From NCBI GenBank assembly GCA_902597195.1, contig CACJWV010000001.1, positions 120 to 64,119 on the forward strand: DNA of 64,000 nucleotides, written 5' to 3'. The stretch is from an uncultured Bacteroidota bacterium (GTDB taxonomy: Bacteria; Bacteroidota; Bacteroidia; Flavobacteriales; BACL11). The notes beneath the pieces are model-generated. The model did no database searches, was not told the origin of the DNA, and saw nothing but the letters and a program-made list of their open reading frames with translations. Positions within the stretch are counted from its first letter, which is position 1, and each line of letters opens with the position of its first letter. This document shows, one piece after another, positions 11,787 through 39,200 of this stretch. The position numbers and the translations under genes were made by a program.

Positions 11787-11845
11787 AATATCAATTTTTT
11801 GTTTTGGGTTAAATATCTTTTAATTTAATAAAGATATTGTCCAAA

Positions 11846-11853
11846 CAAAGATA
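11846..11853 (-). promoter_or_regulatory. Candidate -7 promoter box for metK
   Basis: The minus strand reads TATCTTTG (TAnnTTTG), 60 nt upstream of the metK ATG. Confidence 0.25.
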
Positions 11854-11874
11854 ATATTATTCACGAATTATTTT

Positions 11875-11882
11875 TAAATTTG
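11875..11882 (+). promoter_or_regulatory. Candidate -7 promoter box driving the riboswitch-metH-metF transcript
   Basis: TAAATTTG lies immediately upstream of the riboswitch P1 helix. Confidence 0.35.
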
Positions 11883-11885
11883 TGG

Positions 11886-11990
11886 TGACTTATCAAGAAA
11901 GACGGAGGGATGGGCCCTATGATGTCTTGGCAACCTTAAAAGATGGTGCCAATTCCCACTTCAAAAGATTGAAGGAAGATGAGAATTACT
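11886..11990 (+). promoter_or_regulatory. SAM-I (S-box) riboswitch aptamer
   Basis: CTTATCAAGAAAGACGGAGGGATGGGCCCTATGATGTCTTGGCAACC...GGTGCCAATTCC...GAAGATGAG matches the conserved S-box core (UUAUCAAGAG-GGxGGAGGGA-GGCCC-AUGA-GGCAACC-GGUGCxAAUUCC-AGAUGAG). P1 pairs CTTATC (11889-11894) with GATGAG (11978-11983). It sits upstream of methionine biosynthesis genes. Confidence 0.85.
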
Positions 11991-12033
11991 GATTTAATTT
12001 TCCGACTTTTTTGATTTGCGCTAATTAATTAAA

Positions 12034-19906: not shown

Positions 19907-21427
<1,521 letters not shown>

Positions 21428-21447
21428 TTATGGGTTTATTTATTGGG

Positions 21448-21455
21448 CAAACTTA
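21448..21455 (-). promoter_or_regulatory. Candidate -7 promoter box for atpDC
   Basis: The minus strand reads TAAGTTTG, 33 nt upstream of the atpD ATG. Confidence 0.3.
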
Positions 21456-21543
21456 ATATTTTTAATTTGTTTTTTAAGTATGAAAAGCTATATAAATTAA
21501 TTATTAATTTTGAACAAATTTTTAACACCTCAATAAATCAAAT

Positions 21544-22482
21544 TTGCAAGTAATTTATTCAGTTGACGATTTTCCAAGTGATGTTGAAACATCAGTAACT
21601 ATAGGTACATTTGATGGAGTGCACACGGGGCATAGAAAAATTTTTGAAGAACTAATTAAAACTGCAAAAGAGTCAAAGTTAAAATCAGTTGTTTTTACTT
21701 TCGAACCTCATCCAAGAAAAGTTTTAACTAATAATAACTCAAGCCTCGATTTAATTACAATAACTGAAGAAAAAATTGAGCTTTTCAAGTTGATGTCATT
21801 AGACTTTTTAGTCATTCAAAAATTTAGCAAAAATTTTTCAAAGATTGATCCACTAGATTTTATCAGAGATTTTCTTGTTGACAAATTGAACTTGAAATAT
21901 TTAATTGTCGGATATGACCATCAATTTGGAAAAAATAGAAATGGAACATTTGATAGTTTGCAACAATATTCCAAACTTTTAGGATTTTCATTAAAAAAAG
22001 TTGATGTACATAAAAACTCTGAAATTGTAGTTAGTTCAACTAAAATTAGAAGTTTAATAGCTTCTGGGATGATAGAAATGGCTAATAGCCTACTAGGTTA
22101 TCGCTATTTTTTTAGTGGAATTGTTACTAAAGGAAATGAAATTGGAAAAGAGTTAGGATTTGCAACGGCAAATCTTCAAATTAGTGAAGAAAAAGTTCAT
22201 GTTCAAAATGGAGTGTATGCTGTGCATGCATATGTAAAAAATGTAAGGCATTCAGCAATGATGAATGTAGGCTATAACCCTACCTTTGAAAATGATATTT
22301 TTGATGAAAAAAAGGTTGAGGTACATATCTTTAATTTTAAAGAAAATATTTATGGAGAAATTATCAAAGTAGAGGTGATAAAAAAAATCAGAAATGAAGT
22401 TAAGTTTGAAAGTAAGGATAAGTTAATAGACCAGCTAAATATTGATAAGCAAACTTCTTTGTCAATTATTCAAGAGCTTTAA
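21544..22482 (+). CDS. ribF: Bifunctional riboflavin kinase / FMN adenylyltransferase
   Basis: TIGTFDGVHTGH, the kinase domain GFATANL, and ...VEVHIFNF. A TTG start is implied, as there is no in-frame ATG before the GxFDGxH motif. Confidence 0.9.
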   Translation: MQVIYSVDDFPSDVETSVTIGTFDGVHTGHRKIFEELIKTAKESKLKSVVFTFEPHPRKVLTNNNSSLDLITITEEKIELFKLMSLDFLVIQKFSKNFSKIDPLDFIRDFLVDKLNLKYLIVGYDHQFGKNRNGTFDSLQQYSKLLGFSLKKVDVHKNSEIVVSSTKIRSLIASGMIEMANSLLGYRYFFSGIVTKGNEIGKELGFATANLQISEEKVHVQNGVYAVHAYVKNVRHSAMMNVGYNPTFENDIFDEKKVEVHIFNFKENIYGEIIKVEVIKKIRNEVKFESKDKLIDQLNIDKQTSLSIIQEL

Positions 22483-24747
22483 TTTAGCAAACTTTAGCAA
22501 TAAAGTTTTTTCGCCAAAGTTGTCAAAATTTACACATGCTTTAGTACTTGAACCAAATCCTTCGATATTTGAAATTGATCCTTTGCCAAAATTTTGGTGT
22601 TCAATTCGATCTCCGATAGAAAATTTATGCTCGACATAATTTTCAGCTTCATGATTTTCTATTTTTTTTACTGACTTCAAGCTTCTGTTCGTTGTTGGAA
22701 ATGATTTTTTTTTGAAACTAAATTTAGGCTTCGAAAACTGAATCTCTTGTTCATTTCTAACCACATATTTTTCATCCAGTTCATTTAAAAATCTGCTTTC
22801 AGAGCAGTCAATGTATTGTCCCCATCTGAATCTGAATGTAGAGTACGATAAGAATAAATTTTTCATAGCACGAGTAATTGCAACATAAAATAATCTTCTT
22901 TCTTCTTCCAAATCTTGCTCACTTTCTAAGCTCAACATCGATGGAAATAGGTTTTCTTCAATTCCAACTACAAAAACATTAGGAAATTCAAGTCCTTTAG
23001 CTGCATGAATCGTCATTAGTGTTATTTTGTCTACTTCTTCGTCATTTTCATTATCCATGTCTGTAATTAATGCAATTTCTTGCAGATAATTACCAAGAGA
23101 AACTTCATCTTCTGATTGCTCTGCAAAAGTTTTAACTCCATTTAATAATTCTTGAATATTTTCAAATCTACTTACACCTTCAGGTGTTTTGTCATTATGT
23201 AGTTCAGTATAAATTTTTGAACTGTGAATAATATCGTTTGCAAGAGTATAAGCATCGCATTTTTGACTCATCAATATGAACTTTTGAATAAGTTCATAGA
23301 ATTCAATCAACTTTTTCTTTGTCCCCTTATTGATGTTTATATCAATATGCTCTATGTTTTCAATTATGCTCCAAATGCTTGTATCATTTTCTATTGCTTT
23401 TAGACTTAATCTGTTTAATGTTGTTAATCCAATACCTCTGCTAGGATAATTTATTATTCTTTTTAAAGATTCATCGTCATTTTGATTTACTATTACTCTA
23501 AAGTAAGCTAAGATATCTTTAATTTCTTTTCTTTGATAAAAAGAAATTCCACCATAAATTTTATAATTTATGTTTTTCTTTCTTAAAGCTTCCTCAATCG
23601 CTCTTGATTGGGCATTTGTTCTGTAAAGAACGCAAAAGTCGTTGTTAAAGAAATCATCTCTAATTTTTAAATCAAAAATTGTATTTGCTACCAACTTTGC
23701 TTCTTCATTATCAGAGCTACATTTGTGTATTACCACAGAGCTTCCAATGCTATTGTTAGTCCAAACTTTTTTTTGTAATTGTTTTTTGTTAAAGCTGATA
23801 AGATGATTAGCAGTCTCTACAATTGATTTTGTAGATCTGTAATTTTGCTCTAGCTTGAATGATTTAAAGTCAGGGTAATCAGATTGAAAATTAAGTATGT
23901 TTTGTATGTTTGCTCCTCTGAAAGCATATATGCTTTGCGCATCATCACCAACTACACATATATTTTCATTTAATGCAGCAAGCTTTTTTATAATTAAATA
24001 TTGAATATGATTGGTATCCTGATATTCATCAATTAAGATATACTCAAATTTTCTTTGGTATTTTAAAAGTATATCCGGGAAAGAATTCAATAATTTGTAT
24101 GTATTAATTAATAAATCATCAAAGTCCATTGCAGAATATTTAATACATCTGTTAGTGTATGATTTGTAAATATCTATGAAGTTTGTTCTTTTGGCTATTT
24201 TGTCTTGTAATACAATTTCCGGGTTATTAACATATTCATCTGGAGAGATAAAGTTGTTTTTCATAGTCGATATTCTAGATCTTATTATATTAACTTTATA
24301 AAAATCTTTGTTCAGGTTCAGCTCTTTAATAATAGATCTGATTAAACTTTTACTATCTTCAGTGTCGTAAATTGTATAATTTTTTGGATAGTTTATGTAG
24401 TGAGATTCTATTCTCAGAATTTTAGAAAATACAGAATGAAATGTCCCCATCCAAATATTTTTAGCATCATTATCTCCAATGATATTTTGTATCCTGTCCC
24501 TCATTTCTCTAGACGCTTTGTTGGTGAAGGTTAGTGAAAGAATATTAAACGGATTGATTCCATTTTTTATTAAATGAGCAATTCTGTATGTTAAAACTCT
24601 AGTCTTTCCTGACCCAGCTCCTGCAATGACAATCATCGGACCATCTATTTGTTCTACTGCTTGTTTTTGCTCAGGATTTAAATGATTCAAATAGTCGTTC
24701 AATGTTTTTTTTTGTAAAATTAGTCTTAAAAATATATTCTTACGCAA
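22462..24747 (-). CDS. pcrA: UvrD/PcrA/Rep family ATP-dependent DNA helicase
   Basis: Helicase motifs GAGSGKT, TFTNKA, DEYQDTN, QNYRS, VLYRTN, TIHAAKGLEF, VAITRA. The start is uncertain: there is no ATG upstream of LNPEQ, and TTG 24747 is the longest option. Confidence 0.88.
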   Translation of the reverse strand: MRKNIFLRLILQKKTLNDYLNHLNPEQKQAVEQIDGPMIVIAGAGSGKTRVLTYRIAHLIKNGINPFNILSLTFTNKASREMRDRIQNIIGDNDAKNIWMGTFHSVFSKILRIESHYINYPKNYTIYDTEDSKSLIRSIIKELNLNKDFYKVNIIRSRISTMKNNFISPDEYVNNPEIVLQDKIAKRTNFIDIYKSYTNRCIKYSAMDFDDLLINTYKLLNSFPDILLKYQRKFEYILIDEYQDTNHIQYLIIKKLAALNENICVVGDDAQSIYAFRGANIQNILNFQSDYPDFKSFKLEQNYRSTKSIVETANHLISFNKKQLQKKVWTNNSIGSSVVIHKCSSDNEEAKLVANTIFDLKIRDDFFNNDFCVLYRTNAQSRAIEEALRKKNINYKIYGGISFYQRKEIKDILAYFRVIVNQNDDESLKRIINYPSRGIGLTTLNRLSLKAIENDTSIWSIIENIEHIDININKGTKKKLIEFYELIQKFILMSQKCDAYTLANDIIHSSKIYTELHNDKTPEGVSRFENIQELLNGVKTFAEQSEDEVSLGNYLQEIALITDMDNENDEEVDKITLMTIHAAKGLEFPNVFVVGIEENLFPSMLSLESEQDLEEERRLFYVAITRAMKNLFLSYSTFRFRWGQYIDCSESRFLNELDEKYVVRNEQEIQFSKPKFSFKKKSFPTTNRSLKSVKKIENHEAENYVEHKFSIGDRIEHQNFGKGSISNIEGFGSSTKACVNFDNFGEKTLLLKFAKLKLLNN

Positions 24748-24763
24748 AATAAAAAAGATTTTC

Positions 24764-24771
24764 TACATTTG
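24764..24771 (+). promoter_or_regulatory. Candidate -7 promoter box for the first giant adhesin gene
   Basis: TACATTTG lies 37 nt upstream of the ATG at 24808. Confidence 0.3.
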
Positions 24772-24807
24772 TTATACTAGATTAAAATTAGTATTACGAT
24801 CAATTAA

Positions 24808-27800
24808 ATGTTATTTCTTAGGTATCGAAATTCAAACATATTGTTTTTGGGAATTTTATCATTTTTATTGTTAAAATTTTCAGTATCAGCAAGTGCCCAA
24901 AGTTCAATCATGCCCTCGCCATGCAATGATTCTATACAAATGATCGTTAATTCAAGTCTTGAAACATGCATAGAGGGAGATGGGGTAATAGAAATCATAG
25001 TCACAGGAGGAAATGGAAATTTTTCATATTCTCTTGATGGAGGATTAAATTTTTCTACATCAATATTTATTGATACAATCACGATAGATTCTCTTTCAAG
25101 CTCAACATATGATATCTCAGTTAGGGACGATAGCTTATGTGTAAAAAACTTTGGCTATTTCTATTTAGGACAAGTTCAACCTGCTCACATTGACTCAATT
25201 AATTTAGTAAATGAATCATGCTGTGGCGGTGATGGATCCATAGAAATATTTTCTAGCTCAATTTATAATATTAGTTTTTCTATTGACAGTGGCTTAAGTT
25301 GGTCTCAACAAAATTCTTTCAGTTCTTTAGAAAATGGAAACTATTACCTTTTTATTGAAGATGAAAATTTTTGTAGAGATAGTTTGTTTGTTGAACTAAA
25401 AATTGATTCTATTGCTAATATTAACATGGCATCTCAAGTAACTGATGTTATTTGCAATAATGATTCAAATGGTACTTTTAAATTATTATATCCGGACCCT
25501 TGCTATAAATACGAATTATGGAGATACACTGTAAATACACCGCAGCTGATTACAGATTCAGGTACCTATTTCAATAATCTTGTTCCAGGATACTATGGAC
25601 TTATTGCGAAGTCAAATTCAGAAACTTGCTTTGATTCCTCAAGTGTTTTTTATATTTCTCAGCCAGATGAGTTGAGTTCAACTAACGCTCTATCTGTTGA
25701 AAATACATGCTCTAATATCTCGAATTGTAATGGAATGATTACAGCGGGACTTGTCACAGGTGGAATTTCTCCTTTTTACTATTATGTGAATCGATTTGGA
25801 AGCAATATACCTCAAGGTCCAATATCTGTTGATTCAACTTTTTCACTTCTTTGTTCTGGACAATACCAAATTAGATATTTGGATGCAAATGCATGCGAGT
25901 ATTTAGATACTGTTGAGATCGTTGATAACTCATTAAGAATAGATTCGCTAATAAAAAGTGAAATTAAATGTTATGGAAATTCTGATGGTGAAATTGATGT
26001 TTATTTTAGTGGAGGGGAAAGTCCCTTCATAACAATTTGGAATGATACTTTATTGTCAAATAGAATTGACAGTCTAAGTTCAGGTTCCTATAAAGTAAGC
26101 ATCATTGACTCTGTTGGTTGTGTTGTCACTGATAGTTTAATTTTGGAGAATCCTGACACTTTACTTTTTAAAGTACGTTCAAATGGTATCACTGAGGAAA
26201 CTTGCTTTAATAGTTCTAATGACGGTCAAATAATATTAGAAATAACAGGAGGTACATCACCATTTTTTCATAGTTGGATTTCCAGTTCTGGGTCAAGTGG
26301 TTATGGAATTGGTGATACAATTTTCTCGTTGAGTTCAGATACATTTGTATTAAGTGTTGTTGACAATAATGGATGCATCGGATCGCCTAGCTGGGGGACA
26401 GTAGATACTACTTTTGTTGGCGCATTGAATTTTGAAAACCTTTTAACGATTGATTCAGTAAATTTCAATTCAGATTCCATTTGCTATGCAGTTAATGATG
26501 GTTTTATACATATATATTCATCTGGTATCTATCCATTAAGTTATTCAGTAGACAGTGGGCTCACTGTTCAAGTGGACTCGATATTTACATCTTTACCAGC
26601 AAAAAACTATCATATTGTTGTTTATGACAGTTTGGGATGTTCTGAAAATTTAGAAATTGAAATTTTGGAATATGATCAGCTATTAATTCAAATTGATAGC
26701 ATAAAAAATGTAAGTTGCTACGAAGGTAATGATGGTTATATTTCTGTTAGTACTAACTCTGACAGAAGCTATGATTTTTTATGGTCATTAAACAATGATA
26801 CGAATCGCTTTATCAATAACTTAAAATCTAACCAATATTTTGTTAGAGTAACTGATGAAAATCAATGTACATCAGTTGATACTTTCTACATAGCTGAGCT
26901 TGGTGGGCCACTTAAGTCTAATGAAGTTATAAATATTGATGTTACTTGCTTTGGAGGTAAAGACGGTTTTTCTGAGGTTTTGGCCTCAGGTGGAGTACCA
27001 TTCACAGATTCTTCCTATTCCTATATCTGGTTAAGCTCCGAGTATGATACAATTGGTTTTGGTAAAAATCAAAATAATTTATCATCAGACTTTTACACCG
27101 TACACATATTTGATAGCCTTGAATGTGGTCCGTTTGTTGATACGATTAGAATATTGCAGCCTGATTCGTTTTATGTCACTGTCGTAAATATTACAGATAA
27201 TGTTTGCCATGGTAATAATAACGGAAATATATTATTACAAGGGCATGGTGGTAATTTACCATATCACAAATATTTTTTATCTAGTGATAGCTATATTAAT
27301 GAAACTCAAGTTAGTTTTTTTGATAGTTTATTAGCAGATAATTATGTTGCATGGATTGCTGATGGCAAAAATTGTATTTCTGATACATTAAAAAATATTA
27401 AGCTTGGAGAGCCAGGTGGTTTAAATCTCAATTTAACTACCCAAAATCCTAATTGTTATTCTTCATCAGATGGGAGTATGTCACTAATTTTAAATTCAGC
27501 AACATCCCCTTATGATTGTAATGTTTTGTATGATGGTCTGCTAATAAATTCATTCACATTGAATCAAAATTATACCCAAATCTTATATGACTTGTCAAAA
27601 GGAAATTATGAAATCCAAATTTCTGACTATAATGGTTGCGAGTACGATACATTATTTGCATTGTTAGAGCCTGACCCTGTTATTTCTAATTTTACTCCTG
27701 ATTCTTACTATTGGGTTGAACCTGTAGTAATTGACTTTGTTAATTTGAGTGAAAATGCAAATCAATTTGAATGGAGATTTGGTAATGGAACTTCGATTTC

Positions 27801-28203
27801 TAATAACAGTTTAGATAATGTTAGCAGCTTTTATAATAATCAGGGGAAATACATAATTGAACTAATTGCTTCAAATCAAGAGCTTTCTAACATATGCAAT
27901 GATACATCAAAATTTGAGATAGATATTGAAGGTTTTGATATCTTAAATACTTTTACTCCAAACGGAGATAATATCAATGATTATTTCGAATTTGATGAGC
28001 ACCTATTTTCAGAAATAAACGTCAAAATTTATAACAAGTGGGGAACAAAAGTTTTTGAATGGAATGAAATCAACTACAAGTGGGATGGTAGAGGATACAG
28101 CGGAGAAAATCTGCCAGAATCAGTTTATTACTTTGTTTTAGATGCAGTTGGTATTTCTGGACAATATTATCAAACTAATGGTCATATCAATTTATTAAGA
28201 TAG
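24808..28203 (+). CDS. Giant cell-surface SprB-repeat protein with a PKD-like domain and a T9SS type-B C-terminal domain (island gene 1)
   Basis: Signal peptide MLFLRYRNSNILFLGILSFLLLKFSVSASA. Many repeats of C.G..DG.I.....GG..P(F/Y).Y.W ... D..GC. C-terminal FTPNGDNINDYFEF...KIYNKWGTKVFEW...WDGRGYSGENLPESVYYFVL is the gliding-motility-associated CTD (TIGR04131 type). Confidence 0.9.
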   Translation: MLFLRYRNSNILFLGILSFLLLKFSVSASAQSSIMPSPCNDSIQMIVNSSLETCIEGDGVIEIIVTGGNGNFSYSLDGGLNFSTSIFIDTITIDSLSSSTYDISVRDDSLCVKNFGYFYLGQVQPAHIDSINLVNESCCGGDGSIEIFSSSIYNISFSIDSGLSWSQQNSFSSLENGNYYLFIEDENFCRDSLFVELKIDSIANINMASQVTDVICNNDSNGTFKLLYPDPCYKYELWRYTVNTPQLITDSGTYFNNLVPGYYGLIAKSNSETCFDSSSVFYISQPDELSSTNALSVENTCSNISNCNGMITAGLVTGGISPFYYYVNRFGSNIPQGPISVDSTFSLLCSGQYQIRYLDANACEYLDTVEIVDNSLRIDSLIKSEIKCYGNSDGEIDVYFSGGESPFITIWNDTLLSNRIDSLSSGSYKVSIIDSVGCVVTDSLILENPDTLLFKVRSNGITEETCFNSSNDGQIILEITGGTSPFFHSWISSSGSSGYGIGDTIFSLSSDTFVLSVVDNNGCIGSPSWGTVDTTFVGALNFENLLTIDSVNFNSDSICYAVNDGFIHIYSSGIYPLSYSVDSGLTVQVDSIFTSLPAKNYHIVVYDSLGCSENLEIEILEYDQLLIQIDSIKNVSCYEGNDGYISVSTNSDRSYDFLWSLNNDTNRFINNLKSNQYFVRVTDENQCTSVDTFYIAELGGPLKSNEVINIDVTCFGGKDGFSEVLASGGVPFTDSSYSYIWLSSEYDTIGFGKNQNNLSSDFYTVHIFDSLECGPFVDTIRILQPDSFYVTVVNITDNVCHGNNNGNILLQGHGGNLPYHKYFLSSDSYINETQVSFFDSLLADNYVAWIADGKNCISDTLKNIKLGEPGGLNLNLTTQNPNCYSSSDGSMSLILNSATSPYDCNVLYDGLLINSFTLNQNYTQILYDLSKGNYEIQISDYNGCEYDTLFALLEPDPVISNFTPDSYYWVEPVVIDFVNLSENANQFEWRFGNGTSISNNSLDNVSSFYNNQGKYIIELIASNQELSNICNDTSKFEIDIEGFDILNTFTPNGDNINDYFEFDEHLFSEINVKIYNKWGTKVFEWNEINYKWDGRGYSGENLPESVYYFVLDAVGISGQYYQTNGHINLLR
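27941..28200 (+). other. T9SS type-B C-terminal sorting domain of island gene 1
   Basis: FTPNGDxxND...Y(N)(K/R)WG..VF......WDG.......P.GVYY(F/Y) signature. Confidence 0.8.
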
Positions 28204-28255
28204 GAAAGTTAAAACAAAACTTACCTTAAAATCGCTCTATTAGAAGCGAATTTTG

Positions 28256-28263
28256 TAGATTTG
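28256..28263 (+). promoter_or_regulatory. Candidate -7 promoter box for island gene 2
   Basis: TAGATTTG lies 17 nt upstream of the ATG at 28280. Confidence 0.3.
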
Positions 28264-28279
28264 TTCAAAATAATCGATT

Positions 28280-31200
28280 ATGAAAAAGATAGTTGGACTA
28301 ATTCTTTTGGTTTTTCTATCATTTGGTGTTCATGCAAGTCACATCATGGGAGGAGAGATCACCTGGGAGTGTATCAAAGATCCTCTTGACCCTGATGTTG
28401 GTAAGTATATTTTCACAATGAAGTTATACAGAGATTGTGATGGTATTTCTTTACCCACAACTAATCAAACACTAAATGTTTGGAATCACCCTACAGTAAC
28501 TACAATCAGTTTACAATTTATTTCAAATACTGACATATCACCAGACTGTGATGTTACAAATAGTGGAAACCCTGCATTAGACTGTTTTACAAATCCAATC
28601 GGCGCTGTTGAAGAGTACATCTATCAATCTCTGCCAATAGCTTTAATTGGCGCACCTCCAATTTCCAATCCTCCAACACCCACTACGCATGGATGGCATT
28701 TTACATGGGACTCATGCTGTAGAAATGGAGCTATTGTAAATTTAACTACACCAAATTCTGACGGTTTTACCATGAGAGCTTCAATGTTCGCATATGTCGA
28801 TCCTCTAGGTAACTCCACGCCGACAGATCCATGCTTTGATTCCTCTCCAATTTTTAATGAAAGCCCTAAGACAATTATTTGTACTGGATATCCTTTTTCA
28901 TATACACATAATGCATCTGATCAAGAAATGGATAGTTTGGTTTACAGTTGGGACGAGCCATTAGATGACTTTTTTGGGGCTTACAATCCGCCTGTAACAC
29001 CCGGTCTGCTAACGTATACACCCCCTTACACTGCAAATAACCCGCTTCCTGGAAACCCAACACTTGATCCTCAAAACGGTCAGATATCTTACACATCAAA
29101 TTTATCTGGTAACTTTGTTACTGTAGTAAGAGTTGATGCATACAAATGTGATCAGCTGGTTGCTCAAATTTATAGAGAAATTCAAGCAGTTTTAATTGCT
29201 TGTCCTCCTCTTGCTGGTGGAAATGCAAACTTTCCTCCAAATATTCCAGCACCATTTCCAGCACCAACTCCCTATTATACCACTGTTGCAGCTGGAACTT
29301 TGGTATCTTTCAATATTAGTGCCTCTGATGCTGATTTATATGCAGCTGGTGTACCTCAAGATGTATCATTAGAAATCACTGGAGGTCAAATGGCAGGTGA
29401 TTTTATAACAACCACTGATTGTGTTAGCCCACCCTGCGCTACATTTACTGACAACTTAGGTAATCCACCACCTTTTTCATCTCCTTCTATCGTTAATGGA
29501 ATTTTTGAGTGGCAAACAGCATGTACCCATATTTCTTCGGATGCAGGATGTGGTAACGTATCAAATATTTACAATTTTGCAATAAAAGCATATGATGACT
29601 TTTGTCCTGCAAATGCTATTACTTTTGCAACAATAACAATCGAAGTTACTCAAGCAGCATCTCTGCCTGCACCCGATTTAAAATGTGTGTTTGTTAATGG
29701 TAATGGCGATGTAACTTTAGATTGGAACCACACCGTAGGGGCAAACAACTCTACGCTATATCATCTCTACGCCTCTGATAATATTGGGGGACCTTACGTA
29801 AATGTTGCAGATGTATCATATCCAACTGATAATTATACAATTGACTCTTCACTTGTGCCACCAGGAGCGCAATATTTTTTCATGACAAATGAGTCCACAT
29901 GTGCAAGTGAATCTCTACCATCAGACACCATTACACCAATAGCATTTGAAATTTCATCAAACAATGTATCTTGTTGGGATGATGCAGATGGGTCAATTTC
30001 CGTCGAAGTTTTAACTAACATGTTAAATCCATTTAGTTATTATATAAATGGTGTAATTAACCCTAATCCACCTCCTTATGATACTTTGTTTAGTGCATTA
30101 CAAGCCGGAACTTATAATATTACAGTAAGTGACAACGGATATTGCCAAATTACTCAGCCAATTCATATAACTGCCCCTGGTTTTCCATTACAATTAATTA
30201 TTAGTGATACTGTGAATACCTGCTTTGGCCAAGGAACCGCTAACGCTAGCGTAGATGGAGCAGGAGGAACCCCACCATACAGCTATGAATGGTTTAATTT
30301 TGGTGATACAATAGCATTTTCTACACAAAATACTGTAGATTCCTTATCCACTGGTAGTTATTTTGTAGAAATTATGGATGTAAATGGATGCGATACTTTC
30401 ACTACAGTACAAGTTATATCCTCACAGCTTCCATTGACAGCCTCACCACAGATTTATGGTGTTTCATGTCAAGGTGATAGTACTGGTATGATCATAGCAG
30501 ATGGAGGAGGTAGCTCTCCCCCTTATAAATACTACTGGAAGGATTCTAGCGGAGATACTATAAGATATACAGGATATATGATAGGAAGAGACACATTGAG
30601 AGATCTTCCTGCAGGAAGTTATAGGCTACATATTTATGATTCACAAGATTGTTTTGAAGATTATATATTAACAGTAGGAGAACCTGCAACGAGCCTAACA
30701 ATAGATAGTTTATTAACTGTTTCAGATATTGCTTGTCATGGAGATAGTGTAGGTAGCGCGAGAATGTTTGTAAGCGGAGGTATGCCTAACTACTCATATG
30801 TTTGGGAAAGCGGAGAGACTGGTTTAGTAGCTACATCTCTCAAGGCTGGCTATAACACTGTGTCTGTTACAGATGACTGGGGTTGTACAGTAGAGGATAG
30901 TATTCAAATTAATGAGAACCCTCTGATTGAGTCAACAGTTAGTGTTGTTCAGAATGTAAGTTGTTATGGTAATTCTGACGGTATTGCAAGTGTTACTTCA
31001 TCAGGAGGCATTCCATCATATATATATTTCTGGAGTAATGGCCATACAGGCTTTAGTATGCCAGATACAGCATATAATCTACTATTTGGAAGTTATTATG
31101 TTACTACCAGAGATGCTTTAGGTTGTGAAGTTATAGATAGTATAGATATAAGTCAACCAGAACCTTTATCAATGGAGGCTAGTGAGATAGAGTGGATTTC

Positions 31201-33178
31201 TTGCTATGGAGCAAATGATGGATTGGCAAATGCATATGCTTGGGGAGGTACAGCTCCTTATACCTTTACATGGCTGCCAAACGGGCAACAAGGAGATACT
31301 GTAAACACATTAACTCCAGGTATACACACAGTTACTGTTACTGATGCAAAAGGCTGTACAGCAAGTGATACAGTATTTATAAATGAGCCTTTTGAGCTAT
31401 TTGTAGACATAGATGATGCACAGACCGTTTTAGCTTATTGTGTAGGAGTTAATACTGCTTCACTCACAGCTATTGCATCTGGAGGAACACCTGGTTATTC
31501 TTATCAATGGGATGATAATAGTGTTGCTCCTCAAACAACATCAGTAGCAACAGATTTATTTGCAGGAGTTTATACAATTACAGTTACAGATTCTAGAGGT
31601 TGTACAGTTACAGATTCTAGAGATATAGATACAGTTACAAATACAATGAATGCACATATTACTGCATTAAATCAGTATAACGGAGGCCATCACGTAAGTT
31701 GTTATGGCGCAAATGATGGAAAAGTATATGTGTCGGCTTCAGGAGCACATGAACCTTATTCTTACCAATGGTTTGGTCCTTCAGGCTTTAGTGGTAGTAA
31801 CGACACTATTAATCAACTTGCTGCAGGTATATACTCTGTGAATGTTAGTGATACAAATAATTGTATGGTAAATACGAGTATACATGTTACTGAGCCATTA
31901 AATCTATTATATAGTGTTCATTCCTCCACTGCTGAGACATGTCTTGGTTCTTGTGATGGAACAGTTTCATTACAATTATCAGGTGGTACTGCTCCTTACG
32001 TAGGTATTTTTACTAATAATGTAACTGGACATATTGGATCAAGCTCTATGCCTAATGATAGCTTGATTACTAATGTTTGTTCTGGTAGTCATAGTATTAC
32101 ACTAACTGATGCTAATGGTTGCTCTAGTGCTATAATCAACGGAGGTAACAATCAGGTCGTTGTTCCATTTGCATTGTCAACAACAGCGTCTATTGATTTT
32201 TCTTCTGTGGTAAATGTATTGTGTAACTCATCTGCTACTGGCTCTGTAAGTGCTTTAAACCCAATTACAAATAATACAAACTACTCTTACTCTTGGGAAA
32301 ATGTAAATAACCCTGGAGTTACAGTTTCAAGTACTACTGCAGCATCAAACTTAATTGCTGGCACTTATGTTTTATTAGCACATTATTCTGATTCAAATAA
32401 TTTAAATCTAATATACCCAGGATGTACATCATCAGATACTGTTACTATTTCGGAGCTACCAGCTGTTGAAATTTCAAGTAATGGAATAGTTGCAGCGGAT
32501 TGCTTTGGAGCAAGTACTGGTAGTATTAACGCAGCAGTCTCTGGTGGAACACCGCCTTATACTTTTAGTTGGCTGCCTAGCGGTGGAAGTTCGAACTTAG
32601 CTAGCAATTTAAGTGCAGGTACGTATACGCTGAATGTATTAGACGCTAATCAGTGTTCTGATGTAGATACTTTTATGGTATCACAGCCAGATGTTCTAAA
32701 TGTTAGTATCACTGAGAATAATTATTTGTTGAGCGTATCTTCCTTAACAGGAGGAGTACCTCCTTACTCATATTCTTGGAGAGAATCTTCAACACCAAAT
32801 GTTTCAATACAAGGAGGGACTTCATTTTTAGTAACAGAAGGAGGAAATTATTATGTAATAATAACGGATGCCAATGGATGTACACAGACATCTAATTCTG
32901 TGTTGTTTAATGAGACAAGCATTGGAGAAGCTGCAATAAGTGAGATAAAAATATATCCGAACCCATTTAGAGATGAAGCTACGATTGATTTAGGAACATC
33001 AGTATCGGACGTAGTCGTAAGGGTAATGGATATATATGGAAAAGTTATAGAAATAATAGAAACAAAGAATAGAGATAAGGTTTTAATAAAGTCTAGAAAC
33101 AAGGCTAAAGGAACCTATTTTGTGGAGATAGAAATAGATGAAGATCAAATATTCTACAAGAAATTAATAATGGATTAA
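28280..33178 (+). CDS. Giant cell-surface protein: unique ~555-aa head, SprB-repeat stalk and T9SS type-A C-terminal domain (island gene 2)
   Basis: Signal peptide MKKIVGLILLVFLSFGVHA. Head starts SHIMGGEITWEC...LYRDCDG. About a dozen SprB-type repeats (GGTPPYSYEW, GGMPNYSYVW, GGTAPYTFTW, GGTPGYSYQW and others). Tail IKIYPNPFRDEATIDLG...GTYFVEIEID is a Por secretion tail (TIGR04183 type). Confidence 0.9.
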   Translation: MKKIVGLILLVFLSFGVHASHIMGGEITWECIKDPLDPDVGKYIFTMKLYRDCDGISLPTTNQTLNVWNHPTVTTISLQFISNTDISPDCDVTNSGNPALDCFTNPIGAVEEYIYQSLPIALIGAPPISNPPTPTTHGWHFTWDSCCRNGAIVNLTTPNSDGFTMRASMFAYVDPLGNSTPTDPCFDSSPIFNESPKTIICTGYPFSYTHNASDQEMDSLVYSWDEPLDDFFGAYNPPVTPGLLTYTPPYTANNPLPGNPTLDPQNGQISYTSNLSGNFVTVVRVDAYKCDQLVAQIYREIQAVLIACPPLAGGNANFPPNIPAPFPAPTPYYTTVAAGTLVSFNISASDADLYAAGVPQDVSLEITGGQMAGDFITTTDCVSPPCATFTDNLGNPPPFSSPSIVNGIFEWQTACTHISSDAGCGNVSNIYNFAIKAYDDFCPANAITFATITIEVTQAASLPAPDLKCVFVNGNGDVTLDWNHTVGANNSTLYHLYASDNIGGPYVNVADVSYPTDNYTIDSSLVPPGAQYFFMTNESTCASESLPSDTITPIAFEISSNNVSCWDDADGSISVEVLTNMLNPFSYYINGVINPNPPPYDTLFSALQAGTYNITVSDNGYCQITQPIHITAPGFPLQLIISDTVNTCFGQGTANASVDGAGGTPPYSYEWFNFGDTIAFSTQNTVDSLSTGSYFVEIMDVNGCDTFTTVQVISSQLPLTASPQIYGVSCQGDSTGMIIADGGGSSPPYKYYWKDSSGDTIRYTGYMIGRDTLRDLPAGSYRLHIYDSQDCFEDYILTVGEPATSLTIDSLLTVSDIACHGDSVGSARMFVSGGMPNYSYVWESGETGLVATSLKAGYNTVSVTDDWGCTVEDSIQINENPLIESTVSVVQNVSCYGNSDGIASVTSSGGIPSYIYFWSNGHTGFSMPDTAYNLLFGSYYVTTRDALGCEVIDSIDISQPEPLSMEASEIEWISCYGANDGLANAYAWGGTAPYTFTWLPNGQQGDTVNTLTPGIHTVTVTDAKGCTASDTVFINEPFELFVDIDDAQTVLAYCVGVNTASLTAIASGGTPGYSYQWDDNSVAPQTTSVATDLFAGVYTITVTDSRGCTVTDSRDIDTVTNTMNAHITALNQYNGGHHVSCYGANDGKVYVSASGAHEPYSYQWFGPSGFSGSNDTINQLAAGIYSVNVSDTNNCMVNTSIHVTEPLNLLYSVHSSTAETCLGSCDGTVSLQLSGGTAPYVGIFTNNVTGHIGSSSMPNDSLITNVCSGSHSITLTDANGCSSAIINGGNNQVVVPFALSTTASIDFSSVVNVLCNSSATGSVSALNPITNNTNYSYSWENVNNPGVTVSSTTAASNLIAGTYVLLAHYSDSNNLNLIYPGCTSSDTVTISELPAVEISSNGIVAADCFGASTGSINAAVSGGTPPYTFSWLPSGGSSNLASNLSAGTYTLNVLDANQCSDVDTFMVSQPDVLNVSITENNYLLSVSSLTGGVPPYSYSWRESSTPNVSIQGGTSFLVTEGGNYYVIITDANGCTQTSNSVLFNETSIGEAAISEIKIYPNPFRDEATIDLGTSVSDVVVRVMDIYGKVIEIIETKNRDKVLIKSRNKAKGTYFVEIEIDEDQIFYKKLIMD
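30349..33163 (+). repeat. Copy 1 of a 2,815-bp near-identical direct repeat (3' part of gene 2)
   Basis: Block-by-block comparison with 42,239-45,053 at a constant offset of 11,890. Mismatches occur only at 30385, 30514, 30516 and 30517. Positions 30518-33163 are identical. Confidence 0.95.
32945..33175 (+). other. T9SS type-A C-terminal sorting domain of island gene 2
   Basis: IKIYPNPFRDEATIDLGTSVSDVVVRVMDIYGKVIEIIE...KGTYFVEIEIDEDQIFYKK. Confidence 0.8.
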
Positions 33179-33262
33179 CCCTGTGGTTTATCCAAATGAA
33201 AAATTTATAATATGATTAATAGTTTATATAATAGTTCAAAATTAAGAAATGGTTTTTTAAAT

Positions 33263-36200
33263 ATGAAGTTGTTTTTTATTGCATTTAGTATGCTAGTTTT
33301 TGTTGGTGTTAATGCACAGGTAACTGTTAATGTTACTAATGCTACTTCTGTAAACGCAAATGATGGATTAGCTATAGCTAATGTTGCTACAGGTTCTGGA
33401 AATTACACGTACTATTGGGAAGATTTAAGTACAAATCTACCTGCTAATGGACCTACAACTACCACAGCTTCAACAGACACATTTTTTAATGCACCCTCTG
33501 GTACATACTTATTATCAGTAATTGACAACGGTTTGAGTACATTTTCAAGTGATACGGTTTTCATTTCTGCTCCTGGTGGTTCTTTTTCTTATAATGGTGC
33601 ACTCGGATTATGCGTAAACACGACGACACAATTAACTGCAATTTTAAGTGGATGTAGTTATATTAATCCAACTCTTGGAATAGATTACACACTGCTGAGC
33701 TCAGTAGGAGGTGTGCTATTGTCTACTAATTCAACTCTTGATTCTGTTTCATTACCTGTTTTAGGTGCAGGAACTTATTATATGTCTTCTGCTAATCTTG
33801 ATAATGGATGTATTACTGTAGATACATTCACTATTTCTACAGGTGTTTTATCTGCAAATGTTGTATCATCAAATGTGTTGGGTCCTAACAACCTAGGTTC
33901 TGCAACTATTACTGCATTTGGAGGAACACCACCATATAGCATATATTGGAGTATTGGTGGAGTTGGTTCAGTTATTACTTCATGGACAAACGGAGATTCT
34001 ATACAAAACCTAACTCCAGGTACATATACATATACAGTTAGTAGCTCTGGTTGTTTCACATCAGGAAGCGTGACAATAACTAATGCATGTAATGCAAATT
34101 TTATTTCAAATTATAATGTATGCGATGAGAGTATAAATCTAAGCGCAACAATGAATATGACTAACCCAGGTAGTTCTTACAATTACAATTATGAGTTATC
34201 AAATAGTTCTGGGGTTATTGAAAATTTATTATCTAGTAATGATTCAATAGCATTCACTAGCTCAATTAGTAATAATGGTTTATACTTTTTAAATGTTACT
34301 GAAACCACAACCGGCTGTATATCACAAGATACAATTGACATTAATTTAACACCGCTGTTAGTAAATACAACTGTAAATAATGTAACAGATCCTTTGTTAT
34401 GTAATGGTTCTATATTTGCAACCCCAACAACAGGTTCCTTTCCTTACACATTTCAATGGGATACCAATGGAACTGTTTTTTCCTCTAATTCCGGTTTTAA
34501 CTCTAGCATAATAAATCTTTGCTCTGATACTTTCTGTCTAACAGTCACTGATGCGAGTTCATGCTCATACAATGAATGTATTGCTGTTCAGTTTAATCCT
34601 TGCATTGCTACCACAACGGTTTTTGATAGTATCAATTGTTACAATGGTGTTGGAGTGATTCAAGTAGATGTTGATACACTAGGTTTAGGAGCTGGACCGC
34701 TAGCCTACACTGGTTCTAGGTTCATATATACTGTCACAGACATATCAACAAGTGCTACAACTACACAACAATCCAACAATACTACTTTTATCTTCCCCAA
34801 CTTGTCTGCAGGTTCTTACATTATAAATGTAGAAGATCAGTCATGGGGGTCTTTCTGTGTTGGTGATACAATTGAATTAACTCAGCCGGACCCTTTACAA
34901 ATCTTCACTTCAACATACAATCCGAGTTTTCCGTGGATACAAGATGGATACATAGTAATTGATTCAATTATTGGAGGTACTGCTCCATTTAATGTTGTTT
35001 GGCTAGATTCAGTTGGTATTCCCTTACCAACCTCTGGATTTCTAGTTCAAGATTCTTTAGGTTATTCAAACCAATATAATGGAGGGTATACAATTCAAGT
35101 GACTGATACAAACGGTTGTTTCCAATCAGTTACTTTATACCTTGACCCTGATAATTCGGCATCTCAACTTTCAATTGATTCAACTTCAGTAACTAATCCA
35201 AGATGTTTTGATGATTGTGATGGAAAATTATTTGCCAAAATGTATGGTGTTGGTACTTATTCGGTACCCCCGTTTACATTTTACTGGCTAAATGCAACAA
35301 CAGGTGATACTTTAAAAGTAGATTCATTAGGTTCAGCATGGTATAATCCTGCTCATGTAGCAACTTATACAAATAGATGTGCAGGAGATTATGAACTGCA
35401 TGCTTATGATTATTATGATAGAGGTCCTGCTACGGCTCAATTTACTTTAACTAATCCGGATCAGATTTCTGTTTACACTTACGGAGGAGAGCCACTTGAA
35501 ATTGAGTGTGGAGAAGATACTGTTTTAGTTTCTCAAGTCTTTGGCGGAAATAGAACTAATGATACTATCTTTCATAGCTCCAACACCATACAAATAGCCG
35601 GTGGTTTTCCTGCACTAACAGCATATGGTTTTTCTGACACCTTAGATGTGGGTGGAGATTATCTTTTACAAGTTACTGGAACATATGTCGACACTGGTGG
35701 TGTGTTCCATGATGCAGCTTACAGAGACTTCATCTCTCCCTCACCTGAAATGAATTGGTCATTTGATGGTAACTTTACTCACAGACCAACACCAAATCAA
35801 TATGACTTAACACATTCTTACTATTTTCCATTTACGGGAACGGGTGTTCATGAGTTTATTTTCTTTGATCCTGGTTTAATCTACACTGGAGCTTTAACAT
35901 TTACAATTTTTGAACTTGAGCTTGATACACCTCAGTATACATATATATGGTATGAGTCAACTCCTGCTGGTAATATTGTAATTAGCGATTCATCAACGGC
36001 ATACTCATATCCTGGTGTAAATGGAACAGATTATATATTATCGGTTGAAGATCACAAAGGATGTGAAGCAATTGATTCTCTAAGAGTTGAGTGGAATTTA
36101 AATATATTAAACTTTAATAATGTTAGTGTAGTAAGTGCTTCTTGCTATGGTGATTCATCAGGTTCAGTTGTAATGTCTGTCGATACAACCACTGGTTTTC

Positions 36201-39200
36201 CACCTTATTCATATTTGATTGATGGAGTAGTAACAACAGACACAGTATTCAATCTTCCACAAGGAAATTATACTTTAACACTAGCTGACAGCATAGGTTG
36301 TATATCAGATGATTATAATGTGAGTATTTTACAACCTGATTCCCTTTATGCGTGCGGTATGGATACCAACAAAGTAGCAGTTTTATTGGATTCGTTTACG
36401 ATGTCTTTTGATAGTAGTTACAGCCACACAACACAAGTTAGTACAATGCCTGGTCTTGAGTATATGTTTAGGGTAAGTGGAGTTTTTGGAGACACATTAT
36501 TTGTAAATTATATGGACGCTGCATATACATATAACGTCGCTCCACCAATAGCTCATAGCTATAACCCGTGGCAATTTAACGGTGATTCTACAATTAGACC
36601 AATTCCTGACATTTTTAATCCTAACCACGTTTATGAATATTATTTTATTGGAGATGGTAACTCGCAAACGTTTACTTACGAAGATTTAGCTGGAGATTAT
36701 CTTGGATCTGGTGGACAATTAAACTTTGAATTTTATAAGTTAGTTTGTCCAGTCAAAGATACGTCTTACTCTTGCTTTGGTGATAGTACAGCAACAGCAT
36801 CAGTTTACCCAAATGGAGGAATTCCTTTTGATCCAGATGGACTATCTAATTCAGGAGATGAATATTATAAATATGAGTGGACTGGGGCAGGTGGAACGAT
36901 ATGGTCAACTAGTCAAACTGCAAATAATTTGCCAGCTGGAAATTATACAGTAACAATTACTGACAGCCTTGGATGTACCTATGAAAGAGAATTACTAGTT
37001 CTTCAATCAGCTACTCCATTAAATATTGATACAATCAGCCAAATAAATGTTGCATGTAAAAGTGATTCAACAGGTGAAATTTTAGCTGTTGTTTCTGGAG
37101 GATTCGGTTCCAATGTTGCAGTTCTAGTTTCAGGTAATGACACAATTTATTTACAAACAGATATAGCTGACACAATTCTAATTACAAATTTAAAGTCAGG
37201 CTTATACGACCTTTACGTTTTTGATACGATTCCAAACAGTATATATGGATTGTATGGTTGTCCACAGCAAGCTCAAATTTTTATTGATGAGCCACAGAAT
37301 GAACTAACTTCAACAGTAAACTTGTTGGAGAATGTCATATGTTTTGGAGATTCAACAGGTAAGGCTATTTCAAATGTCCAAGGTGGGCAGTTCCCATATA
37401 TCTATGCATGGGATAATGGAGATTCAACACAAATTAATAGCAATCTTTGGGCAGGATGGCAAGGTGTGACCTTTACTGACGCCAACAATTGTACGTTAAG
37501 AGATAGTATAGAAATTATTAATGTTAATCCTGAAATACAAGGGTTTGTTTCAATTCTACAGAATGTATCATGCTTTAATGGATGTGATGGTATTGCACAA
37601 CTTTCTTCAACTGGAGGAGTGCTACAACACAATTATTTCTGGGATAATGGTCAAACATACTTTGGAAGTGGTCCTGATACTGCTTATAGCCTTTGCTATG
37701 GAGGACATGACATAATAATTGAAGATATGGAGGGTTGTAGAAAAATTGTAGAATTTACAATTAATCAGCCTACTGAAATTTTTGCTCAAGCGACAATGGT
37801 TCAGCCAGTACAATGTTTCGGATTTGATGATGGCATGGCATATGGAACAGCTACTGGTGGTACGCCTCCCTACACTTATGTTTGGGATAGTATAAATGGT
37901 CAAAGTGGGCAAAATGCTATCAACTTAACACCGGGAGTTCATGTTTTATATGTTACAGATAGCAAAGGATGTACTGCTCAAGATACTGTAGTTATTACAG
38001 AACCTGCAGAGCTTATAGTTTCAATTGATGATACCATGACGGTATATTCATACTGTTCAGGAACTAATTCTGGACAACTGTGTGCAGTTGCCTCTGGCGG
38101 TACAACTCCTTATAATTATGTTTGGAACGATCCACTTGGTCAACAAGGCTCTTGTGCGTTTAATTTACAAGCTGATTTCTATACAGTAATAGTAATGGAC
38201 GATAGAAATTGTATTGCAACAACTTCTTTTGATTTAGATTCAATAACTAATTCAATGACTTCAGCAGGAGTATCAACATCACAAAATGACGTAACATGCT
38301 TTGGATTATACGACGGATCAATTACTATTAATTTAGTTACTGGTGGGGTACCTGGATATTCTTACCAGTGGACTGGTCCTTCGGGATACACTTCAACAGA
38401 TTCATCTATATCTTCTCTTTATTCAGGAAGCTATGCTTGTGTAATAACTGATACAAATGGATGCGCAGTAACTATTAATACTGAACTCAATCAGCCGGAT
38501 CAGTTAGAATACAACACCTACAACGTTGCTGATGTTTCTTGTTTTGGAGCATGTAATGGTCAAATTTGGGTTGATGTCGAGGGCGGAACGTGGCCATACT
38601 ATTATGATTTTTCAGAAACTGGAACTTTCCCAATCGCAGCAGCTAATAAAGTTCAATTGATTTCAGATACTTTAATTAAAGATTTATGTACAGGACAGCA
38701 TAGTATTTATATTACTGATGCTAACAACTGTGTTGGAACTGTACAGTGGGGTGGGACATGGCAAGAGTTTGTTGACTCTGGAGTTGTTGTTGTTAACGAC
38801 AACATAAATACTGTTGATGCTACTTGCTTCAATTCAAATGATGGATATGCTTGGATTCCTTGGCCAGGGCCTAATCCTTTATTTACATATACGTGGGAAA
38901 CAGATCCAATAACATCAACTATTGATACAGGCTCGTCTACAAACTTACTATTCCCTGGAAATTATAATTTAGTTGCTCATTATTCTGACAGTGCGAATTT
39001 TGGTCAAGTATACAGTGGATGTGATGTAGCTCTTCCTTTTACAATTTCTGGTCCTCCAGCAATTGTTTCAGGTGGAATAGTAACTGATGTAACTTGCTAT
39101 ACTGATACTGATGGTCAAATTACATTAAACCCTAGTGGGGGTACAGGAAATTTTTCATTCCTATGGGACACAACAACATCTGTTCCAATAGGTTCAAATC

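Follow-up and report, generated by a model that had tools for sequence, protein, structure and literature searches.

The tufA/tufB genes and the rRNA operons are near-identical paralogues that are maintained by recombination-dependent gene conversion while they diverge between species. A pattern of this kind could be observed for two large adhesin genes, here termed g2 and g4, in a 64,000-nucleotide (nt) stretch of DNA (the window; contig CACJWV010000001.1, positions 120–64,119 of the forward strand, assembly GCA_902597195.1) from an uncultured Bacteroidota bacterium of the order Flavobacteriales. Whereas whole housekeeping genes are homogenised in the tuf and rRNA systems, only the C-terminal two-thirds of g2 and g4, a shared module termed R, is involved here, and the N-terminal heads remain distinct. 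Recurrent gene conversion between g2 and g4 was considered the cause of the shared module, with a probability of roughly 85%. The phenomenon, concerted evolution, is of a known kind and the locus is a clean but ordinary case of it; its distinctive features are long-lived fixed edges within one clade, shifted edges elsewhere, and small holes that resist homogenisation.

Paralogous surface adhesins with concerted 3′ segments are likewise found in Helicobacter pylori, where the attribution of bab and hom homogenisation to conversion is reportedly owed to Pride & Blaser 2002 and Santoyo & Romero 2005. In a later account, the 3′ segments ("segment 3") of babA/babB and homA/homB cluster by strain and the other segments by gene, as a result of intragenomic gene conversion (PMC2795765). 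The bab and hom genes differ from g2/g4, however, in belonging to another phylum with another fold and secretion route, in the dispersal of their loci, and in that conversion also yields chimeras for antigenic variation. By comparison, g2 and g4 lie in one cluster at a distance of 11.9 kb, share a domain of about 2.8 kb with perfect identity (the few mismatches are treated below), and show the pattern across species- to family-level divergence instead of among strains.

The products of g2 and g4 resemble Flavobacterium johnsoniae SprB and related gliding adhesins in the SprB repeat (PF13573), in a C-terminal signal for type IX secretion (T9SS), and in being very large surface proteins. F. johnsoniae SprB carries a type B sorting domain, like g1 and g3 of the same cluster, whereas g2 and g4 carry type A domains. 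Within the Bacteroidota, the Porphyromonas gingivalis genes rgpA, kgp and hagA have identical repeated adhesin regions in common which defeat automated assembly (PMC5266723). As described there, these genes also code for T9SS cargo with type A sorting domains and different N-terminal parts; unlike g2/g4, they share cleaved-adhesin and DUF2436 domains in place of SprB, and their modules are shuffled combinatorially among genes and strains. A bounded conversion domain with conserved escape islands, as seen by site patterns in g2/g4, is not described for rgpA/kgp/hagA in the passages of that source that were consulted. The search of the literature on gene conversion with SprB or T9SS yielded no description of concerted evolution of SprB-repeat adhesins or of this type of locus. 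As a natural case of a conversion domain with definite bounds in surface-protein genes of bacteria, the locus is unusually clean, and the pattern persists in uncultured marine Flavobacteriales from near-species up to family-level divergence. It indicates that clusters of T9SS adhesins can evolve with a stalk and sorting module in common and with heads that diverge.

A homogenised C-terminal module in g2 and g4

The two genes and the parts of their shared sequence are as follows.

28280–33178, forward strand: g2, 1632 amino acids (aa), adhesin with SprB repeats and a T9SS sorting domain of type A (open reading frame (ORF) list, Pfam, TIGR04183)
40674–45068, forward strand: g4, 1464 aa, paralogue of g2 with another head and the same C-terminal module (ORF list, Pfam, NCBIfam)
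30257–30295, forward strand: 39-nt patch, g2 copy, GAGGTPPYSYEWF, identical to 42150–42188 (chance of this codon identity 4e-5)
42150–42188, forward strand: 39-nt patch, g4 copy, identical to the g2 copy
30296–30349, forward strand: g2-type island, 54 nt, NFGDTIAFSTQNTVDSLS, gene-specific, kept in g2 orthologues and never homogenised in the close clade
42189–42239, forward strand: g4-type island, 51 nt, DYNFNSLSNDDSLFNVS, one codon shorter, kept in g4 orthologues
30350–33163, forward strand: R, g2 copy, 2814 nt or 938 aa, SprB repeats and most of the sorting domain
42240–45053, forward strand: R, g4 copy, offset by 11890 from the g2 copy
33164–33178, forward strand: g2-specific tail LIMD and stop codon, kept in g2 orthologues, 6 gene-specific sites
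45054–45068, forward strand: g4-specific tail ISIK and stop codon, ISLK in the relative AG-913-I23

Domain searches predicted both proteins to be T9SS type A cargo with SprB repeats. Pfam assigned nine SprB stretches to g2 and eight to g4 (PF13573, E ~1e-68), together with a type A sorting domain (Por_Secre_tail, PF18962) of 49.2 bits in g2, located at aa 1558–1630, and 58.5 bits in g4 (cut-off 27); the NCBIfam match to TIGR04183 reached 39.7 bits against a cut-off of 23. The g2 protein consists of a unique head (~aa 1–550), ~137 aa directly upstream of R which are ~45% identical to g4 in the alignment, and R, while g4 has an N-terminal head of its own (~aa 1–385) followed by R; the two heads are unrelated to each other. 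No Pfam or NCBIfam family was found above threshold in the N-terminal head of either protein. The g2 N-terminus carries a signal-peptide-like sequence, MKKIVGLILLVFLSFGVHA, followed by SHIMGGEITWEC, and the g4 head contains a sub-threshold Por_Secre_tail-like stretch at aa 325–368.

R forms the C-terminal 938 residues of g2 and g4. Its two copies lie 11.9 kb apart in direct orientation and differ at only 4 positions in 2814 nt (30385, 30514, 30516 and 30517), the final 2646 nt being identical. Identity ends 15 nt short of both stop codons, and the DNA beyond the stops is unrelated. Upstream of R, the 39-mer GGAGCAGGAGGAACCCCACCATACAGCTATGAATGGTTT has just two occurrences in the window, starting at 30257 and 42150 with an offset of 11893, and is followed by the two islands, which differ at about half of their positions and by one codon. 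An earlier note on the window, made from its letters and ORF list, had described this arrangement; its coordinates, the offsets of 11893 and 11890, the 39-nt identity and the placing of all four mismatches in the next 170 nt could be reproduced, as could the protein ends KKLIMD and KKISIK and the absence of shared intergenic DNA after the stop codons. The segment of ~50 nt which it called unrelated turned out to be a homologous, diverged part of the same SprB repeat, each version of which is conserved in its orthologues.

Orthologous loci were collected by scanning GTDB species-representative genomes. The close relatives, with 81–94% nucleotide identity, were the single-cell genomes AH-716-K08 (L001) and AG-913-I23 (L002 and L011) and the metagenome-assembled genomes (MAGs) TMED84 (L003/L016) and SP47 (L004). 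The distant relatives, with 50–58% aa identity, were AC_MB403 (L005 and L006), FRAM18_bin188 (L009, L010), L007 and L008. Five further close-clade contigs came from metagenomes, which were scanned with a pattern taken from where R begins. Look-ups of the exact g2 and g4 sequences gave no hit, and the window's own genome is absent from the collections; the nearest sequences were one of the metagenome contigs (L022), with 98% identity to the window, and the SP47 MAG (91–94%). The gene order g1-g2-g3-g4 and then the ribosomal cluster is kept in the relatives wherever the locus extends that far, and a third copy of the module is present in FRAM18_bin188 at a distance of 78 kb from the main locus. 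AC_MB403 (merged coordinates 20635–29774) was seen to possess an extra adjacent gene, g5 (1527 aa), with the same module; in this genome, the identity between g4 and g5 extends past the stop codon by ~124 nt, and the head of g5 matches that of the remote FRAM18_bin188 copy at 66% identity.

Self-comparison of every genome with two copies gave 98.8–99.9% identity across 2.9–3.2 kb. Within a genome, the C-terminal 938 aa are 99.0–100% identical (window, AG-913-I23, the three copies of AC_MB403, and g2/g4 of FRAM18_bin188), and the remote third copy of FRAM18_bin188 is 97.8–98.7% identical to the main-locus copies. Across genomes, the same 938 aa are 90–91% or 50–59% identical, so that the copies of one genome resemble each other more than they do their orthologues in other genomes. 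Neighbour-joining analysis placed all R copies together by genome. The heads, on the other hand, cluster by gene: g2 orthologues are 55–91% and g4 orthologues 46–94% identical, and g2 versus g4 ~30%.

Site patterns were counted in a quartet consisting of g2 and g4 of the window and g2 and g4 of AG-913-I23, with sites scored as genome-specific, gene-specific or ABBA.

Upstream of 30257: 5 genome-specific, ~100 gene-specific, 5 ABBA
39-nt patch: 1 genome-specific (30271), 0 gene-specific, 0 ABBA
Island, 30296–30349: 0 genome-specific, 8 gene-specific
R, 30350–33163: 333 genome-specific, 1 gene-specific, 0 ABBA
Final 15 nt of the genes: 0 genome-specific, 6 gene-specific

The signal switches from genome-specific to gene-specific at the boundaries of R, in agreement with the grouping of the heads, and R has evolved in concert in these genomes. 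In the closer quartet of AG-913-I23 and AH-716-K08, the ratio of genome-specific to gene-specific sites was 43:0 in R, and upstream of it 0:181. When the window was compared with AG-913-I23, R showed a synonymous divergence (dS) of 0.47 and a ratio of nonsynonymous (dN) to synonymous divergence (dN/dS) of ~0.1, and the heads a dS of 0.54–0.90. Within the window, the R copies differ by one private site and one codon cluster of differences. Since dS in R is 0.47 across species yet near zero within the window, purifying selection on nucleotides cannot explain the identity; and since R diverges across species like the heads do, normal divergence together with repeated re-homogenisation within each genome is indicated. 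Between-species dS along R is uneven, with ~1.1 (30350–30800) and ~0.75 (32375–33050) at the ends compared to ~0.3 in between, and dN is highest, at 0.106, near 32375–32825. Conversion histories that differ along R, or recombination with other lineages, may underlie the uneven dS.

Edges of the domain and the holes within it

The layout of patch, island and R is common to all close-clade sequences that span the 5′ junction, namely the window, the two single-cell genomes, the two MAGs and the five metagenome contigs, and the 3′ edge lies at the identical base in all close-clade sequences that reach it. Each type of island is conserved among its own orthologues in this clade. The edges are different in the distant relatives. 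Counted in nt back from the last base of the gene (stop codon included) and written as negative numbers, the perfect run extends from −2661 to −16 in the window, from −2975 to −62 in g2/g4 of FRAM18_bin188, and in AC_MB403 from −2882 to −74 (g2/g4), −3114 to −74 (g2/g5) and −2885 to −1 (g4/g5). The ends of the domain thus vary by genome and by gene pair (5′ from −2661 to −3114, 3′ from −1 to −74) while being fixed within the close clade, and in AC_MB403 and FRAM18_bin188 homogenisation includes the sequence that corresponds to the island. End points that vary across lineages and gene pairs are predicted by recurrent conversion and not by a single duplication, and conversion edges can evidently be fixed for long and then move. 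In FRAM18_bin188, the third copy of the module (L010, gene 8468–13096) agrees fully with the g4 copy over 2600 nt, and an island of ~30 nt with ~25 differences, including a 6-nt indel, lies inside R at ~10470–10500 of L010 as a second example of a hole.

The earlier note had favoured gene conversion over a mobile element or a whole-gene duplication. That choice was borne out by the clustering of the module by genome and of the heads by gene, by the reversal of the quartet signal at the boundaries, by edges that differ among distant lineages, and by the lack of shared non-coding DNA, inverted repeats or a transposase ORF. It had also proposed to include orthologues from related genomes and to see whether the breakpoints differ between strains; the breakpoints are the same throughout the close clade and different in the distant genomes and among gene pairs.

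Judged by codon frequencies at this locus, two identical peptides would agree in all 13 codons of the 39-nt patch with a chance of 4e-5, and the rare codons ACC (8%) and AGC (9%) appear in the patch of g2 as well as in that of g4. Thus, the patch did not arise by chance from a conserved motif. When non-paralogous SprB cores of the four genes were paired (130 pairs), the highest match was 29/39 nt, with no long identical run. In the distant genomes, the conversion domain begins ~20–115 nt upstream of the patch position and runs through both patch and island; the patch is therefore better read as a stranded remnant of a longer domain. Among the close relatives, the g2 copies of the patch carry 1–3 private changes in AG-913-I23, AH-716-K08 and L019, and the g4 copies are invariant save for a genome-specific C/G at 30271.

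The mismatches inside R fall into two groups.

30385, forward strand: private synonymous change in g2 of the window, AAT compared to AAC in g4 and in all relatives (singleton list, alignment)
30515–30517, forward strand: gene-specific codon in R, Ser in g2, with the g4 counterpart at 42405–42407 being TTC (Phe); contains the mismatches 30516 and 30517

The change at 30385 is a new mutation that arose after the last homogenisation. The mismatch at 30514 is synonymous and belongs to the codon preceding 30515–30517, which itself is part of the first complete SprB core in R. In g2, this codon specifies Ser in the window (TCT), AG-913-I23, AH-716-K08 and L022, with TCC in the relatives; its g4 counterpart specifies Phe in the window, AG-913-I23, L003 and L023 and Tyr in AH-716-K08. 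Only the consensus MAG L004 departs from this Ser/aromatic rule. The codon stands between genome-specific sites at 30511 and 30518, which are 2–5 nt from it. Neutral conversion should erase the Ser/aromatic difference, so that selection for a gene-specific residue would be the simplest reading. The island also keeps its gene-specificity, with 23 gene-specific sites in the quartet of AG-913-I23 and AH-716-K08. Whether selection maintains both the island and codon 30515–30517 as gene-specific appears evenly balanced. Another donor for either island was sought in the window and in all loci, and only chance matches of at most 20 nt were obtained; an origin of the island by micro-conversion from another SprB repeat is unsupported by this search. 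The persistence of both features demonstrates that very small gene-specific elements can survive within a homogenised tract.

A more speculative suggestion, which we consider rather doubtful, is that R is more than a passive target of recombination. A family of marine Flavobacteriales would maintain two or three adhesins with the same stalk and sorting signal but different heads; selection would favour identical stalks, perhaps because they co-assemble or use one route of recognition and attachment, and would shield the tiny gene-specific determinants from constant conversion. If this were true, the 17/18-residue island and the Ser-versus-aromatic residue would mark where the specificity of the head is read out.

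Assembly caveats and competing explanations

Nearly identical repeats of this length are a problem for short reads, and an unlikely alternative is that the near-perfect identity is partly an artefact, in which copies were collapsed, bubbles popped and one node walked twice, so that variants remained only close to unique flanks. In the window, AG-913-I23 and AH-716-K08, the mismatches that survive do all lie within ~335 nt of the 5′ unique flank, and independent short-read assemblies break or loop at R (L003, L016 and L017–L021), with L016–L019 and L021 starting or stopping at the R edge or no more than ~250 nt from it. Several MAG and metagenome contigs are plainly graph walks: L003 (over the whole contig) and L020 are cyclic, running R-g3-g4 head-R with a period of ~11.9 kb, whereas L004 (3831–6740) and L022 (2135–5041) contain a shortcut in which the g2 head and R are joined directly to the DNA downstream of g4. 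Such cyclic and shortcut contigs are the expected graph artefacts of a collapsed repeat, yet they also match the real products of a crossover between two R copies, namely a circle and a deletion. In L004, which was looked at for collapse versus real deletion, Ns are scattered along the whole contig. Collapse requires copies that are already near-identical, however, so that the concerted pattern holds regardless, and no surviving mismatches are found near the 3′ unique flank. Furthermore, the 1.39-Mb contig of AC_MB403, with Flye-style naming, contains three copies with perfect runs of 2809–3041 nt, which exceed short-read placement; this contig cannot be a short-read product. As assemblies break or loop at R, the copies must be near-identical in natural populations, although 100% identity is not proven by this. 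Such repeats break or mis-join short-read MAGs at predictable places, as seen in the cyclic and the shortcut contigs, two of each here, and gene content and apparent deletions at R are therefore not trustworthy without long reads.

The other explanations concern the biology of the locus. In one version of the earlier note's reading, the boundaries would be the scar of one recent tract that began in a generic SprB core, GG..PY.Y.W, with heteroduplex repair leaving patchy identity that fades towards the 5′ edge. The succession of patch, island and near-identity would fit patchy mismatch repair, and all four mismatches do fall in the first 170 nt of R; but the same mosaic and the same 3′ end are present in every close-clade sequence spanning them, at 81–98% nucleotide identity to the window, and they are therefore not the scar of a single recent tract. 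The island is gene-specific and conserved in orthologues, and the supposed decay resolves into the private synonymous change at 30385 and three clustered mismatches that fall within, or next to, one codon whose gene-specificity holds across species. Initiation in the core is also unlikely, considering that non-paralogous cores share at most 29/39 nt and have no long identical run. A very low probability is accordingly given to this explanation. The earlier note had further held that sharp breakpoints common to orthologous loci, together with shared flanking non-coding DNA or target-site duplications, would speak for a single insertion or duplication. Close relatives do share the breakpoints, but neither shared flanking DNA nor a target-site duplication accompanies them, and conversion is not overturned. 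Hardly credible, and the least probable of all, is a single ancient duplication or domain fusion whose copies stayed alike by purifying selection alone. Equal breakpoints in close relatives and purifying selection on R (dN/dS ~0.1) would be in keeping with it, but dS in R is 0.47 between species and essentially zero within each genome, the copies cluster by genome even at 50% aa divergence, the edges differ in distant lineages and among the gene pairs of one genome, and the count of 333 genome-specific sites against 1 gene-specific site contradicts it. Nearly as improbable is an origin of R as a mobile element or cassette that entered two genes in separate events or was duplicated anew, independently, in each lineage. 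The sharp edges, the extra copy 78 kb away in FRAM18_bin188 and the third adjacent R-bearing gene in AC_MB403 could suggest such an element; R is, however, in frame and continuous with homologous upstream SprB sequence (~45% aa identity over 137 aa), and the tails that follow it are conserved in orthologues. No terminal inverted repeats, target-site duplication, transposase ORF or shared non-coding flanks were found at R, the only other ORF across it being one of 83 aa on the reverse strand.

Two further candidates were rejected. A simple segmental or whole-gene duplication does not agree with identity that ends 15 nt before the stops, with unrelated flanks and with copies that do not diverge within genomes. 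An antigenic-variation cassette system of the pilE/pilS or vlsE type was discarded as both copies are in full-length ORFs with their own starts and heads, and the exchange here homogenises and does not diversify, as judged by the quartet counts.

Recurrent gene conversion would operate as non-reciprocal homologous recombination between the R copies, probably by a RecA-type mechanism, and would keep both near-identical in each genome. Domain edges would exist because tracts need flanking homology and the genes outside are too diverged to pair. The likely order of events is that the domain formerly began upstream of the patch, where it begins in distant relatives to this day; the island of 54/51 nt would then have turned into gene-specific heterology and cut off the patch, which at 39 nt may now be too short for frequent conversion. 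The island and codon 30515–30517 would persist as holes, most likely through selection for gene-specific residues at the junction of head and stalk.

Several points weigh against recurrent conversion as described. The perfect identity of the interior in the window and the single-cell genomes could be partly assembler-made if a collapsed repeat was walked twice. That the contigs of AC_MB403 and FRAM18_bin188 come from long reads is deduced only from contig size and naming; the FRAM18 study includes both Illumina and HiFi MAGs (PMC8254474). The homogenisation of the patch hangs on the one genome-specific site at 30271. A lone gene-specific codon with converted sites 2–5 nt away is awkward for purely neutral conversion and requires that selection be assumed in addition.

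Neighbouring genes of the cluster

The two converted genes belong to a group of four large same-strand ORFs, g1-g2-g3-g4, located between pcrA/ribF/atpD and the rpsG-fusA-rplC ribosomal cluster. The remaining two members are as follows.

24808–28203, forward strand: g1, 1131 aa, SprB repeats and a type B sorting domain, first in the four-gene cluster (ORF list, Pfam, NCBIfam)
33212–40657, forward strand: g3, 2481 aa, SprB adhesin with a type B sorting domain, between g2 and g4 (ORF list, Pfam, NCBIfam)

Although g3 separates the two R copies, it lies outside the converted domain, with ~36% aa identity to R. The types of sorting signal alternate along 24808–45068, with type B (CHU_C / TIGR04131) in g1 and g3 and type A (Por_Secre_tail / TIGR04183) in g2 and g4. 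The cluster with alternating signals stands directly 5′ of rpsG-fusA-rplC, and the arrangement is retained in relatives at only ~50% aa identity. Besides its terminal type B domain, g3 contains weak internal matches to the type A sorting domain at aa 315–367 and 1996–2020, which are probably immunoglobulin-like beta-sandwich repeats similar to the sorting-domain fold.

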